DNA of 64,000 bases, taken from assembly GCF_964355755.1 (NCBI RefSeq), contig NC_092680.1:2728001-2792000 (forward strand). The letters are read 5' to 3'. The translations under genes were made by a program, and so were the position numbers. This DNA is from Antedon mediterranea. Lineage: Eukaryota; Animalia; Echinodermata. The notes below the pieces were generated by a model. The model was not told the DNA's origin and searched no databases. It was given only the letters and a program-made list of their open reading frames with translations. Each line of letters opens with the position of its first letter. Positions within the stretch are counted from its first letter, which is position 1. Of this stretch, positions 31,412 through 40,567 are shown piece by piece.

Positions 31412-34400
31412 TTAGGCCCTAATATGATTAGTAGGCGATTGGCATAAAAGGCGTTCATCCTCAAAAGCAAAGCTGATGCCGCCTTCGTCGCCGTCCGCTG
31501 TGAGGCGTTTGTGGTACTTGATGGCTTGTTTCTTGGCAAATTCCTTGTTTTCTTGTTGTAACATCTCCTGCATTGATGATCTGTTGTAGAAAACAATGCC
31601 ACAATTAACTTCGTTTGTAATTTTTATTGCTCTCCAAAACAAAGCAGACAAAAAAAATCAATGTGGTTCCCAATAGAGTCCCACACAACCAAGTTCCACC
31701 CATGACAAGACATTGTATGTAAAGTGTGGACAAAAAATAAAAAGGGCACTATTAAAAACTATTGTAAACAATGGGTATTTCAGGCAATTTCTGTGTTACA
31801 TACCAATGTGCATAATTGGGATATTTTGGTAAACCAAAACAATTTTGAGAAATTGCATCTTTAGCGGTCAATCGAAATATCAATTATTGGTAAGTCTGAA
31901 TATATTGCCATGTTGTTTTCATGAGAACCAAGAAGTTGTGCTAGTATGCCGGTATTTGGGCAATAGTGTTAACATAAATTACACATTCTCAATACCAGAC
32001 ATATTTGGCCAGCCTAAAGGTGTCCGGTATTAGGGGAGTTGACCAATGTTTCTGGGTTATTTAAGCATTTTGAAACATCTTATGGTAGTGATGTGCCAAA
32101 ATACGGTAGTGATATGACATCATGTCATATATGGGCACATAACATTTGTTTTGTCACATAAAGTTTGATAGTGTAGACAGAGCTTTATAGCTATATACAG
32201 AAAAAGTGTACACATAATTTGTAGGCCTGCTTTAGTTCACTTCCCTGTGGTAACGTATGGGTCGTGAGTGGAATCAGGCCAGGTTACTCTTCCCTCTTGT
32301 ATTGCAGACTGGTAAACATATCTACCAGCCTGCCTTTGTGGAGAGGGTGAAAGAATAAATGGTGCATGAACTTTGACATGTCGCTTACCTCAACTTATTT
32401 GGGAGCACATAATACAACACAGGTCGCTTGAAACCATTGAACTCCGACCCTGCACACACAGTGTAAGCTCCCATATCTAAAATAAATAAATAACAAAACA
32501 TGACGCTCAATCATAACTGTATATTGTGGGTGCAAAGATCTTGTATATATATATAAACAGTGTTACATAATTTGCATTTTTGTAGGCCTGCTTTAGTTCA
32601 CTTCCCTGTGGTAACGTATGGGTCGTGAGTGGAATCAGGCCAGGTTACTCTTCCCTCTTGTATTGCAGACCGGTAAACATATCTACCAGCCTGCCTTTGT
32701 GGAGAGGGTGAAAGTAAAATGTACTGTAAATATTCTTACCTTTGAATATAATCCATTCGCCAACCTGAAGCTCAGCCATGGTTGTGTGTTCGATGATTCT
32801 GTCCAGGCCATCACAAGACGGACCCCAGATGCTAGTGAAGTATTCCAGCTCATCAGTATGATCCTAAAATAAATTATGAAATAATCCTAAACTCAAGAAA
32901 AATGACCCGAGTGCAGTCAAGAACTGTGGTAAAAAGTCTTAAACACTACCTAAATATCAATCCAATATAACATTATTAAGGAATATCAAATACATTAAAA
33001 GATGGTTAAAGCTCTGTCTACGCTATCAAAAAATGTAATGTGCCCATATGGACATGATGTCATATCACTACCATATTTGGGCATACAACTCCCATATTTG
33101 GGTACATCATCAATTTTCATTTAAGAATTGGGTCACCCCACTGAAACGGTTGCATGAACTTTCCAGTCTGCCATTAAGTTTCAGATAGACACTCCAAACC
33201 ACTCGGCGAATGCTTATTGCATAAATATTTACACTCCAACTATAAATGTATTATCATTAGTAAGCAATTGAATTAATAAAACAATATGGTTGTGTATTTT
33301 TTTTTATATATTGCAACTTAATCTATCCAATCCTAACAGATTGGCTAAATTTCTATCTTGCCATTTTATAGTGCCACGTTATATTTTGTGGTTCTATTGC
33401 AAAAATCATGTTCAGAATTTGGCGAGGGGCTGGTGACTGGGGCATTCAAAAACCAATTTGTAATGTGTTCCATCTACAATCTGTTCTACATCTAAAATGA
33501 AACGCATTAGCCCATTCTTCTTAGTTTAAATGTATGTGTATTGTTTCTGGGGTCTTTCTCGAGACCAGAAACTTGTTTTCTTCTATGTTTACATTTATGT
33601 ACACACCTATAATTATATGTGACCCGATCTGGCAAAACCCTCTCTTTGTCGGCAATTCAAAATTCACGTAATCAGTCAAAATACGTCCAAATCGACTACC
33701 CTGGCAGATTACATGTTTTTGCATTTTCGAAATATTTCACTATCTAAGAATACGTCTACCTGATTTAAACTCCCGAAATTTAACTAAAATTATGAAAAAA
33801 GAGAGTTTTAAAAACATGTATTTTCCTCAAGCCTAACAATTTATTCACGATCTACGCTAAAATTTTGCGTAAATTCAGTTGAAAGTTGCCGAGTTTTACG
33901 ACATTTTGATCGCCAGTTCGCTGCACAATGTTGAAAGGTCACACATCAAAATAAAGCTCATCCATTTGACATTCCAAATATGGAAGTTTTAGGGCGGAGT
34001 TTAAAGAAGGAACCAATGAAAACTTTGATTTACTATGACATCATTTCAGAAAATTCGGTTCTTCGAAGTTTCTGGAACAGCGAACTGCGTGTGTTGCTAT
34101 GGCGCATCATCGCAATAACAAACGTTATTGGTCAACGCGCTAGATGTTATACGCTCTACGCGCGGAAATAAAAAGTTGTTTACATTTTTGTGAGGTTATT
34201 TTTATTGTACACACAGCATGTCGTAAATTGGAATAAAAACGATTTTAATATTCAAAGTAAAGTGTTCTGCAATAGCTGTAGTGTGTATTTGTTTATTCCA
34301 TAGTAAAATAGACAAGTCAAAAACAATTCACGTCATAAATTCAATTGTATTTTCTATATTTTTTTGGGCTAGTAGGCCTAATTTTATTATGTTGTAGGCC

Positions 34401-37400
34401 TACTACTACTGGGCCTAGCTTTATATTATTGTCAATAGTTTTATTTATACATTTTATATATCCAATCGGCTCTTAATCATTTATTTAATTTATTGTCCAT
34501 TCCTTTCATATTAAATGTTTTTTTAAATCATTGGATTCAAGCCCAAACATCACAGCGAATCTTCCACGTTATAAAAAAAAACAAATGTAATCGTCAATAC
34601 AGTGTAATGTTAGCTTGCAATTAGCTGTGACTCTGCAAGGCGCCTAACTTGTCTAGACTAACGCTAGCCCCCGTGTCGATGCACCGCTGCCATACACGGC
34701 CTGATGAACACCCATCATCAGTAGGTCTTAATACAGGCGATGACGGCGAAAATCTGAATAGGCGCGCCTAGGCCTAGGCCTGCTTGGTTTTTTGCCGTTG
34801 ATATCGTAAACACTTCCGAAACCAGTTAACATTAGCTTGGTAGTTATAATGCTGCTTTTCAATAGTGCAAAATAGTTAATTCGAGTGACTAAATAGGTTA
34901 AAACGGCGTCTGAAATCAGTCAAATTGACCATAGTGTCCACGCTGCTGCTATATCGCACACACTTCCTGGTATGACGTCATTGTGCCTTAGACCAAAATA
35001 GCGCGTTGCTACGGAGTGAGTTTTCAGCGCGTATCAAAAAGAATTTCATTGCAAACTTCAAACGCGATTTTCTCGTAAACTAATTGAATGATTTGTAAGT
35101 TTTTAAAATATAATAACTTTTTAAATATTTACTCAATTTTTATGAAATAAACACCATTGCAAAGCTTATGATTCAAATAATCCAAATATATAAAAAAATA
35201 CAAAATGAATATTTCCGACAAAAGTAGGGTTTTGCCAGATCGGGTCACATATTATACTGTATAATGCTATTGTGGAATAAATAAATGTTTTTTGAACTTG
35301 AACTTGAACTGCTTTAAAAACTCGTAAATATTCATTTCTTTCTACACTTACAGTTAAAGTGATTGGTTCAACAACTGCGTGATCGTAGAGTAGACAGTTG
35401 AAAGATCCGTATACCCCGTCGTTCACATAGTACATGTAAGCAGGTTCCTCGCATTTGTTTGGCGCAACAGTGTTGGAAACAAGGTCTGGAAAAGAGCAAT
35501 AACACAATGATTATTATTTATTCGACATGTACATATGAGAGGGTTCATTCGATGTTCATTTCAAGGTGGTAACCCTGTTCACAAGCTTGACTAACATTAT
35601 CATAAAAATCTGGAATCATACAAGATTCAAACCCAAGTGTCTGGGATCAGTAGGAGAGTTCTAAGCAAGATATAATTTGGCTTTGTTTGGCTCAGCTAGA
35701 TATTGAGTACATTTGTGACTTTATCATCAATCATATCAGATAGGGCAAGTCAAATATCTCATCATTGCACAAACTAGGGTATAGTAACATGCAGGCATAA
35801 CTAAAGTTTTAGATCTGGATTTATATATGTATTATTCATTATCTAATGTACTTAAGCTCTGTCTGCACTATCAAACTGGATGTGACAATATATGGACATG
35901 ATGATGTCATCAGGACCACACTTTTTTTGTCAAACTAGTTTGTTAGTGTATATATAGCTTTAGATTCTGCTAAGAATGGGATAAATTAAAATTATTTTGT
36001 GTGGGATTTCGACTCTTTAATTGTTGCATAATCTTAATGAGCCTAGTCTTAAATAGTCAAAAAAAAAAAAAAAATGACTGATTATCTAAAATGTCATACC
36101 TTTTGATTCAGGCACTTCAAATGTTTTGATGTCACGGGAAACAATACGCTTAGCAGTGACGTTCACAGCGAGAGTGAAGGCAGATGCCACAAAGTAACGA
36201 CCAGGCTCAGCGATCACACGGACGCCACAGTCGTTAGGGAAATACTCGCCCAAGGCACAGTTGATTACGTCTGCAAACTGAATTAAATTATTCCATTATA
36301 GTTTTCATTTTCAAAACTTTTTATTTATATGGGGATAATTTAGAATTATTCAGAATAATAAGAAACAGAGCTATTGCCTCCTAAACACAACAAAAACTTG
36401 CACTATTTAAGCTGGCCACATTTTAATACATGTTTCACCATACACCTATTTTATAATGTATTTTTTAGACCAATTTATGTTGACGATCACAGATAATATT
36501 TATAGTCGGCATGCATTGTGTATCATTCCTTTAAATAAAAAACCTGCTGTACCTCTTCAAAAGCTATCGGAGCACTTGCTTGACCTGGAAATCCGCCGCC
36601 AATGTCTAGCAAATCCATGTGATAACCCATGTAATCAGCGATATCAAATATTTCACGAGCTGATGCAATTGCTTTTGTGTAAGCACTAGAATCGCGACAG
36701 CCACTGCCAACGTGAAAGCTGAAATAAAAACGGGAAATTAATACAATGGTTTATCTACACAGACAAAATGAAACGAAAATTGGAAATGAAACAATCGGAC
36801 CTATCCTGTATTATCGCTGGCCTAATTTTGAATACACAACATTTTGCTTCATGGTGCCACAGCTGATATTCCCATAAGCAGCAAACATCACATAATGTCT
36901 TAACTAAAATTGTCATCAATTTCAAGGCTAAAATAGAACCGTAACACCAATCATTTTAACAGCTTACTAATTATCTAGTTTGTTTGGCTCAGATAAATTA
37001 TGAGTACATTTGTGACTTTATCTTCAATTAAATCAGATAGGGCAAGTCAAATATATCATCACAGCTCAAACGCCAAAGAAAGAATTTTTAAATGTTTAAA
37101 ATAAATGCTGAATTTAAATATAATATTCAAATTAGAATTGTTAATTTTATATATACAATTATAATAAATAATTTTATTTTTCAGTCAAATAAATATTTTT
37201 ATATAACTGAATATGGAAAAAAACAAAAATATTTTACCTAACGCCAATAACATTGAGATCAAGCTGCATGGCAACCTGTAGTAGATAGCGAGCATGCTTA
37301 GGGTGGCAGCCATATTTTAGGCCTAGCTGGCATTGAGCTGTAGTGTCGTCAGTTAAAATGCGAAGCACTAATCTGCAAGATAAAACACACATGTCAGCAT

Positions 37401-39660
37401 TATTAATGCATGTCAACTTTGTTGAATCAATAATTTATGCTTATAATATTTCTTGGCTCAGCTAGATATTTGAGTACATTTGTGACTTTATCATCAACAA
37501 AATACAGATAGGGCAAGTCAAATATCTCATCACAGCTCAAACACTATCAAAATAATTTGTAATACTTTGTCTGGCTATTAAACTCTGTATGCACTATCAA
37601 ACTAGTTTAACAGTGTCATGTGCCCAAATATAGTAGTGATATGACATCATGTCCATATATGGGCACATCACGTTTTTTTTGTTACATGAAGTTTGATCGT
37701 GTAGACAGAGCTTTATTCAAGTCTAGTGGTCTAGTGAAAAAAAAATTGGCAAGGACAATGTCATTCATAAAGTTACGTACTTTGCAGCTGGATACACCCT
37801 TTTTATCTTGTGCAGCTCGTCTTCATTGTCAAAGGTCATCATTGAAACGTTGGTGTCACAAGCGTACTTTAGATGAGATTTCTGCTTGCAAGGGTTTGCA
37901 AAGATGATACGCGATGGAGACACACTCAACTCCAGCATAGTTTTAATTTCATTCTAAAAATAAAATTATTTTTGTTAAATGACGATAAATATTTTGTAGT
38001 GAAAAAAATGTTTCATAAAAGCATCATCACAAGTGAACGACGTAAATTATCATTCAAGCGACAAAACTAGAATTGGACAATCTGCTGCGACGATTAGGAG
38101 AATTGAGATCTTGCAGTCAAGAACTTTTTAAACAATTTGTCTAGAGTTAACAAAGTTCTAAAGAAAGTTCAGTTTCAGAGATGACTTATCTTATGTATAT
38201 CTAAAGTTTAATGGTATTGTTTGTGGCTCAGAAAAGATTTGAGGTTAGACTTTATCATCATAGAATAACAGTTAGGGCAAGTCAAATCTATCATCAACGC
38301 TACTGTAAGCACAATCACGGTTTGATCATTTTTTATGACTAAAACCATTGGCTCCTAATCACGCAGGCAAATTATCTATGCAATATTTATGGCGCTGTGA
38401 CTATTACCTTGCTGGCACAGTCAAATCCAGTTCCAAGTGCTGCCAGTGTGGCCAGAACCGCAGGATCTGGGTTACATTTCACAGCTAAAAAAAAAACACA
38501 CATAAATATAACACTATAATAAAAATTTTATGAAGCCAGAACTCATTATATGGCGATAATCTACATTTACGTCAGAAGCTACTATTCGTGTCATTGACAT
38601 TTTTTTTATCAAAATCAAACAAATAATAAATTAATACAATGGAATACATAATAAGCATGATTGCCTTAAACATGTAATGTATATATATGATTAGTTAGTA
38701 AGCAATAACCCAATCAATTTAATTTTTATATAGATGAAAAGAAAACCAATATAGCTATTTACCATAATGTGGCTCTACCCGAGGAAGTAGTCTCCTCCAG
38801 CGGGTAAATTTTTTAATGACATCACCCATGTCACAGATGAAAAATGGATCGTCTTGGTCCTAAAAACATAAAAATACAAAAGTAGATTTAATGTAAAAAT
38901 TGCAAACATTTTGTTTTTTTTTAAACTAATATATAACTAACTATAAATAAATTCACAAAATACTGATGTCTAATGTCCTTTTAAACTACAGACAAAAAAG
39001 TGTAATGAGCTCAAATATGGTAGTGATATACTCAAATATGGTAGTGATATGCTCAAATATGCTAGTGATATGCTCAAATATGGTAGTGATATGCTCAAAT
39101 ATGGTAGTGATATGCTCAAATATGGTAGTGATATGCTCAAATATGGTAGTGATATGCTCAAATATGGTAGTGATATGCTCAAATATGGTAGTGATATGCT
39201 CAAATATGGTAGTGATATGCTCAAATATGGTAGCAATATGACATGATTGTGTTCATATATCGGCATATCACATATTGTTATAATACGATGACAAAATTAG
39301 AATATTTTTCATTTTTTATTTTAAAGACATAATAAATTTATTTATTATAATAATTAATTAAGGAAAGTTGTTTAATAAACCAAAATTTAAGGAAAAAAAA
39401 TGTCGACCAGAACTTGTCTGGAAGGATGTTTTTTTATTACTATTTTTAAAAAAGAAATAATTATTTTTACAGCATCAAAACTACAAAATGATTTTAAATT
39501 AATTAACCCTTTTTTCTGACATTATATCTTTACTTGTTATATAATACATATAATTTACCTCTCTGTCATCATGGTTGTGAACCATTTCACTGACTATTTG
39601 GCGAATAGTTTTACGACTATCATGAGTCTTGATTGAAAATGATGCAGTGGTCAAATCCAT
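31412..39660 (-). CDS. ODC1: Ornithine decarboxylase (coding exons 39660-39559, 38859-38763, 38484-38408, 37953-37781, 37372-37238, 36718-36553, 36277-36100, 35485-35352, 32863-32740, 32476-32389, 31580-31412)
   Basis: PHYAVKCN (PLP lysine), [68 protein letters not shown] and MGAYT; the frame is open across all GT-AG junctions. Confidence 0.95.
32217..32350 (-). ncRNA. Intronic H/ACA snoRNA, copy 1 (last ODC intron)
   Basis: Hairpin 1 (ccctct...agaggg; upper stem gcaggctggta/taccagtctgc), H box AGAGTA, hairpin 2 (ggcctg...caggcc), then ACA plus 3 nt; sense to the host gene. Confidence 0.82.
32578..32711 (-). ncRNA. Intronic H/ACA snoRNA, copy 2 (penultimate ODC intron)
   Basis: Nearly identical to copy 1; the one internal change I can see converts a U-A pair to U-G. 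Confidence 0.82.
33618..35249. mobile_element. Non-autonomous DNA transposon with TIRs, TA-flanked, in an ODC intron
   Basis: ta|tgtgacccgatctggcaaaaccct ... agggttttgccagatcgggtcaca|ta; no coding capacity seen; superfamily unassigned. Confidence 0.8.
35685..35774 (-). ncRNA. C/D box snoRNA, SNORD103/SNORD85-like, copy A
   Basis: - strand: terminal stem gtttg/caaac, C box ATGATGA, guide GACTTGCCCT, D' CTGA, C' TGATGA, D CTGA. Confidence 0.88.
36982..37071 (-). ncRNA. C/D box snoRNA, SNORD103/SNORD85-like, copy B
   Basis: C box GTGATGA, same guide, D' CTGA, D CTGA, terminal stem. Confidence 0.88.
37453..37541 (-). ncRNA. C/D box snoRNA, SNORD103/SNORD85-like, copy C
   Basis: C box GTGATGA, same guide, D' CTGT, D CTGA; ends about 80 nt from the 3' splice site. 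Confidence 0.86.
38223..38303 (-). ncRNA. C/D box snoRNA, SNORD103/SNORD85-like, diverged copy D
   Basis: C box TTGATGA, guide GACTTGCCCT kept, D' CTGT, C' ATGATGA, D CTGA, terminal stem gtagc/gccac. Confidence 0.8.
39008..39240. repeat. 21-bp tandem expansion (gctcaaatatggtagtgatat, about 11 units) inside a family A MITE
   Basis: Directly visible; the unit equals the MITE core motif. Confidence 0.92.
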
Positions 39661-40055: not shown

Positions 40056-40567
40056 TATAAGAGCGTGAAATGGTACTCTGCTATTTCATTTGCAAGTTCA
40101 AAATTTCATGTCTTCATATGGAAATCTACCTCCTAGCAGGCATTATTAATCTTTGCAGGTGGGCCATATATATTATTTTTAATTATCATACAACCAAGTG
40201 CTAGGTGTTCAAATGCAATAACTCCTTAGTGAGAATATACAGACTTAAATAAAATCTGAAAACAAATAAATACATAAAATGTCTCGCTTATCAAAAAATA
40301 CAGAATATAAAAACACGACATTTAATAATTAGGCACAACTTTGTATGCCGTTAAAAAAAAAACAACAAAGAAATTGACATTCTATCAGACGAAAAAAATC
40401 ATATTAAGCATCACCAATTTATTTTAAAAATAATTTGAAGGTTGATGTTTAAGTATTTATATGCTTTGGTCTTTGTAGCACAATTATGATTAATTTTTTT
40501 TGCACTATATTAATACTAATTGCTATACTTACACTGCAAAGTGAAAAATCTGATCCTTTAGCAAATA

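Follow-up and report, generated by a model that had tools for sequence, protein, structure and literature searches.

The stretch of DNA analyzed here is a 64-kb window of the genome of the crinoid Antedon mediterranea (contig NC_092680.1, positions 2,728,001 to 2,792,000 of the forward strand), in which the gene for ornithine decarboxylase (ODC) carries in its introns six candidate small nucleolar RNA (snoRNA) genes, four of the box C/D and two of the box H/ACA class. The ODC coding span lies on the minus strand (31412..39660) with its ATG at 39660, and consists of 11 coding exons (i.e., 39743-39559, 38859-38763, 38484-38408, 37953-37781, 37372-37238, 36718-36553, 36277-36100, 35485-35352, 32863-32740, 32476-32389, and 31580-31412). 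All ten introns between coding exons have GT-AG borders, and the spliced product of 480 amino acids is identical to the A. mediterranea protein record "ornithine decarboxylase-like". When an ODC exon was used as a protein query, it matched this ODC-like protein at 100% and a protein of Anneissia japonica at 89%. The families of decarboxylases dependent on pyridoxal phosphate (PLP), PF02784 or PF00278, scored above cut-off in all seven ODC exons scanned; exon 36717-36553 matched solved ODCs at E ~1e-14, versus 1e-9 to 1e-10 for antizyme inhibitor; and each of six ODC motifs, among them the PLP lysine, the glycine loop, and the catalytic cysteine, was found in the product. The host gene is thus predicted to be an intact ODC with the features of an active enzyme, not an antizyme inhibitor. 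A 1973-nucleotide (nt) contig from a relative, organism B (run X9, whose type is not on record), looks like a spliced ODC messenger RNA because it covers four listed ODC exon pieces. A cassette exon near 35620-35560 was considered and discarded as unneeded, given that the direct exon join already yields the annotated protein.

Each of the introns following coding exons 3, 4, 5, and 7 contains one box C/D copy, all four on the minus strand and in sense to ODC. Copy D (38224..38302; intron 38407-37954) has box C at 38297, its guide at 38283-38274, the D' box CTGT, and box D at 38231-38228. The same elements in copy C (37454..37538; intron 37780-37373) are found at 37533, 37519-37510 (D' CTGT), and 37461-37458; in copy B (36985..37067; intron 37237-36719) at 37062, 37048-37039 (D' CTGA), and 36992-36989; and in copy A (35688..35770; intron 36099-35486) at 35765, 35751-35742 (D' CTGA), and 35695-35692. 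The ODC intron separating copies B and A has no C/D copy.

The 10-nt guide is exact in all four copies (minus strand, at 35742, 37039, 37510, and 38274). A guide search allowing at most one mismatch returned five matches, four of them exact, where 1.43 were expected, and a count of five was reached in one of 100 shuffles. A preliminary description of this DNA had placed four C/D paralogs in separate ODC introns, one in each and in sense, and both the guide positions and the GT-AG introns confirm it. Boxes C and D are 70-76 nt apart, corresponding to ~80-90 nt when the stems are included. Box C is perfect in three copies and reads TTGATGA in copy D, while box D is CTGA in all four. The same description regarded all boxes and the terminal stems as conserved, which holds for the guide and box D, invariant across all four copies (10/10 and 4/4 columns), and less so for the rest: copies C and D have CTGT as D', box C varies in copy D, box C' of copy B is TTGAAGA, and only short terminal stems (-3.5 to -4.4 kcal/mol) close the copies. 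Pairwise core identity is 88-92% within copies A-C, where the 3'-arm element TGTACTCA is invariant, and 72-74% to copy D, with 44-52% identity in the 70-nt flanks. Because the cores are conserved while the flanks are at background identity, the C/D RNA is under purifying selection and the copies are not the outcome of a recent block duplication. They fold no better than shuffled sequences (z-scores of -0.5 to -1.7), and poor fold z-scores are usual for C/D RNAs. A model built from the four copies found no fifth one in the 64-kb window.

The last two ODC introns each contain an H/ACA candidate, neither of which is mentioned in the preliminary description. Copy 1 (32578..32711, minus strand; intron 32739-32477) is composed of a hairpin, the H box AGAGTA, a second hairpin, and ACA, and copy 2 (32217..32350, minus strand; intron 32388-31581) is one substitution away. 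Both are 134 nt long, 99.2% identical over 133 nt, and stably folded, with z-scores of -4.98 for copy 1 (matched by 0 of 200 shuffles) and -5.31 for copy 2. The hairpin-hinge (ANANNA)-hairpin-ACA arrangement, a length within 120-150 nt, and pockets 14-16 nt from the boxes would class both as box H/ACA snoRNAs. The 3' pocket, 14 nt from ACA, forms 11-12 base pairs (bp) flanking the U of a conserved motif in 18S ribosomal RNA (rRNA) in eight of nine loci scanned, the ninth ending before the target site; one in 300 shuffled pockets was equally good. This target lies 743-749 nt from the equivalent of G601 (see below) in chicken, Xenopus, human, and locus L035, a spacing that identifies it as human U1347, or yeast U1290, and the 3' pocket is predicted to guide pseudouridylation there. 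In the account given in PMC9715914, this residue of 18S helix 35 is served by ACA4/SNORA4 and snR83. Candidate 18S partners of the 5' pocket were rejected, the best among nine rDNA loci reaching 6-9 bp, mostly in U-rich flanks. Overall, a snoRNA is present in six of the ten introns between ODC coding exons (four C/D and two H/ACA).

When the ODC introns were scanned de novo, with the limits of the 5' untranslated region (UTR) introns taken from our own reading of the sequence, no further convincing C/D or H/ACA RNA emerged. Two probable ODC 5' UTR exons (~40660-40535 and ~43100-42961, minus strand) are delineated by acceptor and donor motifs, and contigs of organism B also cover both. A contig of the same organism covers the intronic stretch 40065-40358, where the scans yielded neither a C/D nor an H/ACA structure. 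Several ODC introns harbor a high-copy dispersed repeat with inverted arms, resembling a miniature inverted-repeat transposable element and covered at very high contig depth, as well as a tandem array of a related ~21-nt unit; sites of these repeats are ~32150-32190, 33030-33085, 35850-35940, 37570-37720, and 39010-39230.

To find 18S partners for the C/D RNAs, prokaryote assemblies were scanned with the complements of both antisense elements, i.e., the guide and the 3' arm. At least 59 loci matched this two-element pattern; among the matches listed, 46 had a 29-nt gap, 45 of which continue as eukaryotic 18S, and three of three loci tested were confirmed as SSU_rRNA_eukarya. The presence of these 45 eukaryotic 18S contigs among the at least 59 loci matched in bacterial assemblies reflects assembly contamination. 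Antisense pairing is thus judged here against the 18S of eukaryotes other than crinoids. In this 18S, the guide forms a 10-bp duplex with positions 599-608, in human numbering set from an anchor; as a cross-check, the U54-type guide of an animal RPL8 locus described below lands on 644. In all four copies, the fifth base before D' is opposite the second G of AGGG, the equivalent of 18S G601, as had been proposed from the D'+5 rule, and the register is that drawn for human U103. The accompanying attribution of human Gm601 to SNORD103/85 is likewise borne out by the table in PMC11550049, which names SNORD85, SNORD103A, and SNORD103B as its guides. With boxes C and D near their ends, a length within 60-150 nt, boxes D' and C', and an antisense element of at least 10 nt, the four copies have the makeup expected of box C/D snoRNAs.

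A second antisense element has a precedent in human U103. Van Nues et al. (2011; PMC3116282) include U103 in their set of human snoRNAs whose extra base-pairing is conserved, and in their Figure S6 the U103 arm UGGACUCA is shown paired with UGAGUCCA, which lies 28 nt upstream of where the guide binds; the label in the PDF text of this figure is '28S rRNA 601', and other papers put the site in 18S. The preliminary description had given this human pairing, which the figure prints; the accessory rRNA-pairing element that it proposed as possible is not new, as 8 bp of such pairing were already published for U103. The crinoid arm TGTACTCA pairs with UGAGUACA in the same place and with the same spacing as in U103. 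In copies A-C, it forms 8-9 bp with 18S 562-569 in three of three animal-like loci (9 bp in copy B), with energies of -10.7 to -11.7 kcal/mol, versus -5.2 kcal/mol in copy D. The latter had been said to lack the element; it retains five of eight arm columns, and its arm is degenerate and pairs weakly. One arm base is T in the crinoid and G in human, meaning that the human G:C pair would be U:A, and this change would be compensatory if crinoid 18S has A at 567. The three animal-like loci, which were selected for it, have A at the varying site, and so does an Atlantic salmon 18S primer given in PMC1314898; A is therefore a widespread animal state, with C likely derived in part of the vertebrates. 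Krogh et al. (2016; PMC5027482) report, from RiboMeth-seq, no methylation at U1668, a residue once assigned to the D guide of SNORD103, which fits an accessory role for the U103 3' region. A 6-nt block after C', invariant in four of four copies, could extend the pairing to 18S 569-574, where the complementary sequence is found only in the three animal-like loci of the 45 listed. This extension may represent rRNA pairing and may equally be internal, as RNAalifold instead pairs the block with the 5' end of the guide.

In general terms, the locus is very probably best explained by six snoRNA genes within ODC introns that are cut from the pre-mRNA and serve as guides for the G601 and U1347 equivalents of 18S. 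The boxes, the intron positions, and the complementarity to other eukaryotes' 18S were observed directly, and the processing steps are modeled on the established biology of small nucleolar ribonucleoproteins (snoRNPs). Each C/D RNA would be released from the spliced and debranched ODC intron, with trimming that stops at the C/D k-turn and its bound proteins. Its 10-nt guide, which precedes D', would pair with 18S 599-608, and fibrillarin would methylate the base opposite the fifth guide nucleotide upstream of D'. The 8-9-nt arm of copies A-C, paired with 562-569, would likely dock the snoRNP and raise the efficiency of methylation, with no second methyl group guided. The H/ACA RNAs would direct dyskerin-catalyzed pseudouridylation at the U1347 equivalent. 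The C/D RNA is probably a genuine homolog of SNORD103/85 that spread from intron to intron, copy D diverging first, and ODC probably serves only as a host with broad expression, an instance of 'constrained drift'.

Several observations weigh against this explanation. In human, the optimum distance from box D to the 3' splice site is 65-100 nt; it is 85 nt in copy C, and exceeds that optimum in copies A, B, and D (206-274 nt), which would have to depend on their terminal stems for processing because box D is so far away. The 18S loci, none of which is crinoid, were selected by both sites, and so show co-occurrence rather than frequency, that of the A state at 567 included. When each copy was shuffled 5000 times, 13-16% of the shuffles matched 18S over 10 bp at any position, and ~5% had an 8-bp 3'-arm match within ~60 nt of the target. 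Since shuffled copies reach comparable matches this often, each 18S match alone is weak; the case for the predicted target draws on where the boxes lie, on the conservation across all four copies, and on the match to the pairing drawn for human U103. Some of the 3'-arm conservation might come from pairing within the snoRNA, as in the stem beside the C/D motif in copies A, C, and D. Furthermore, Rfam at gathering thresholds has no matches in the 64-kb window, no SNORA4 row appears for the H/ACA copies at E values up to 10, copy C has only rows of other C/D families and none of SNORD103 in that range, and snoU30 outscores SNORD103 on copies A and B (28.9 bits on B).

These Rfam scores can be read more closely. 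In E-value mode (a 3.1-kb region, E up to 10), 32 matches were returned, and the best E-value belongs to SNORD103 (RF00188; gathering score 45 bits) on copy D, with 28.5 bits and E 0.0049; copies A and B score 21.8 and 19.4 bits, respectively. This search, which had been suggested as a check on the family assignment, gives a divided answer: SNORD103 ranks first for copy D alone, yet every match is sub-threshold. Assignments to snoU30, snoZ221, and other C/D families were rejected on mismatched guide columns, snoU30 scoring through its boxes only. Among the Rfam matches, only SNORD103 fits the guide columns of the crinoid copies, which also have in common with its consensus the layout of the 5' guide and a CUGAGCC end. 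Because 28.5 bits is below the 45-bit gathering score, the C/D RNA is not a formal member of RF00188, and is likely a homolog of SNORD103/85.

The sub-threshold scores would also suit a functional analog, i.e., a G601 guide that originated separately through guide shuffling or convergence and is not orthologous to SNORD103. The host, too, differs from that in vertebrates, and the same D' guide occurs elsewhere in another architecture, so that guide modules do recombine. This comes from a metagenome scan for box C, guide, D', and C', which returned 20 loci, one of them (L062) with a complete snoRNA; in the remaining 19, no suitable box D or stem was present, and they were set aside as chance matches. 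A scan of viral sequences gave 41 loci, none beyond a partial match of at most 15 bits. The L062 locus corresponds to the RPL8 gene of an animal (Pfam Ribosomal_L2_C), with annelid and mollusc proteins as best named matches at 86%, and one of its introns contains two copies of a double-guide C/D snoRNA (3985-3914 and 3585-3514, minus strand) that have the same D' guide, reach 37.5 and 34.5 bits with SNORD103, and have no extra arm. Their U54-type D guide lands on G644 in 38 of the 45 18S loci listed, and a single RNA in L062 thereby combines the SNORD103 (G601) and SNORD54/U54 (G644) guides, each of which has its own RNA in vertebrates. More C/D-like candidates are found in RPL8 introns of L062 (~4660-4600, 4444-4365, and 2644-2577, minus strand), one seen only by eye; the Rfam matches there, to SNORD34/37 and SNORD95, are weak (E 0.5-0.8). 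However, the crinoid RNA and human U103 have two antisense elements in the same order and against the same two rRNA sites, and the second arises by chance in ~5% of cases in a loose window and less often at the exact site; a separate origin is thus unlikely, and homology with SNORD103/85 remains the preferred reading.

The preliminary description went further and tied polyamine synthesis to rRNA modification, with snoRNAs moved to and amplified in ODC so that both rise together. ODC is growth-induced, and the presence of a snoRNA in six of ten introns between coding exons is in line with such coupling. In the vertebrate genomes covered by Weber (2006; PMC1687206), ODC is a host as well: intron 1 of human ODC1 contains ACA67B, kept in 11 genomes. 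The passengers of vertebrate and crinoid ODC, however, belong to different families, and the G601 guide has at least three hosts, PUM1, ODC, and RPL8. In chicken, for instance, PUM1 introns harbor three U103 copies, and duplication within a host gave rise to nearly all chicken paralogs; the human SNORD103/85 locus is presumably PUM1. Data in PMC6984369 give five copies in one 5-kb locus in Xenopus and three in human. As pointed out by Hoeppner and Poole (2012; PMC3511168) in their treatment of snoRNA mobility, broad expression is the main requirement for a host, and sponges, as described in PMC3412847, also show snoRNA duplication into neighboring introns. That the host switch and local amplification are special is therefore not supported, as multiple copies are the family norm, host change is documented, and ODC1 was already a host; regulatory coupling is unsupported, with the same guide hosted by PUM1 in chicken and RPL8 in L062, and we consider it improbable.

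It is very unlikely that the 3' arm is structural, pairing within the snoRNA, or that some copies, notably D, are decaying: although in A, C, and D the bases preceding box D form a stem with the spacer that follows box C (-4.1, -8.8, and -7.3 kcal/mol), both sides of this internal stem are shortened to match in copy D, and the RNAalifold pairing and weak D arm noted above point the same way, the spacer pairing is only -0.2 kcal/mol in B, the stem takes only the last three bases of the 8-nt element invariant in A-C, none of 14 consensus pairs has a two-sided change, the C/D folds are no better than shuffles, the element is drawn as rRNA pairing in human (PMC3116282), and copy D retains all boxes and the full guide.

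A literature search on SNORD103/G601, ODC as a host, echinoderm snoRNAs, and mobility, mostly open-access and with genome annotation outside its scope, found no published report of these crinoid RNAs; what is accessible of PMC3349704 and PMC11014333 has nothing that bears on them. The finding itself is well anchored; the RNAs are new members of known families, every component is of a known kind, and there is no new mechanism. As a whole, the preliminary interpretation was right about the C/D identity, the ODC host, the target, and the U103 pairing, and is not supported as to novelty or a special link to the host. These RNAs extend SNORD103/85 and, by target, SNORA4 guides from vertebrates to echinoderms, and Rfam thresholds miss all six crinoid copies, implying that the snoRNAs of invertebrates are under-annotated. 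An A at 567 in crinoid 18S would lend evolutionary support to extra pairing by the U103 3' region over a guide role at U1668. PUM1, ODC, and RPL8 as hosts of one guide make a clean example of known snoRNA mobility. A bolder proposal, which we regard as doubtful, is that ODC has hosted snoRNAs ever since the deuterostome ancestor, swapping its passengers under selection for supplying 18S guides in step with growth, and that the U103 arm has been kept since the echinoderm-chordate split with a compensatory change, forming a bipartite 13-bp clamp on 562-574. If true, the clamp would fall on the stretch bound at U572 by SNORA80B, the vertebrate ODC1 passenger.

The closest known system is that of SNORD103A/B and SNORD85 (U103, HBII-251), which, like the crinoid C/D RNAs, have a single D' guide to G601 in the same register and occur in several copies in one host; their 8-bp extra pairing with a site 28 nt upstream has a predicted counterpart in crinoid copies A-C. 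Unlike them, the crinoid RNAs have ODC and not PUM1 as a host, score 19-28.5 bits against a cut-off of 45, have CTGT as D' in two copies, differ in one arm base (T versus G), and have a D'-to-arm distance of 24-25 nt, compared with 31 in human. Similarly, the arm resembles the elements of van Nues et al. in being a short conserved complement near the methylation site, located in the second guide region and not adjoining box D; it differs in belonging to an invertebrate, with a likely compensatory change, and their U103 drawing has no counterpart of the 6-nt extension to 569-574 that is possible in the crinoid copies. For the H/ACA RNAs, the likely relatives are SNORA4/snR83, whose 3' pocket fits the same conserved 18S U; the 7+5 nt geometry of the 3' hairpin is that of chicken ACA4, for which PMC2653536 gives EIF4A2 as the host. 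The crinoid host is ODC instead, with two near-identical copies and no Rfam match. Finally, vertebrate ODC1, with ACA67B/SNORA80B, also bears an intronic snoRNA, but its passenger is one H/ACA RNA in intron 1, directed at 18S U572 and U109, and no SNORA80-like RNA was found in the crinoid ODC introns scanned, where the passengers are instead candidate guides for the equivalents of G601 and U1347.

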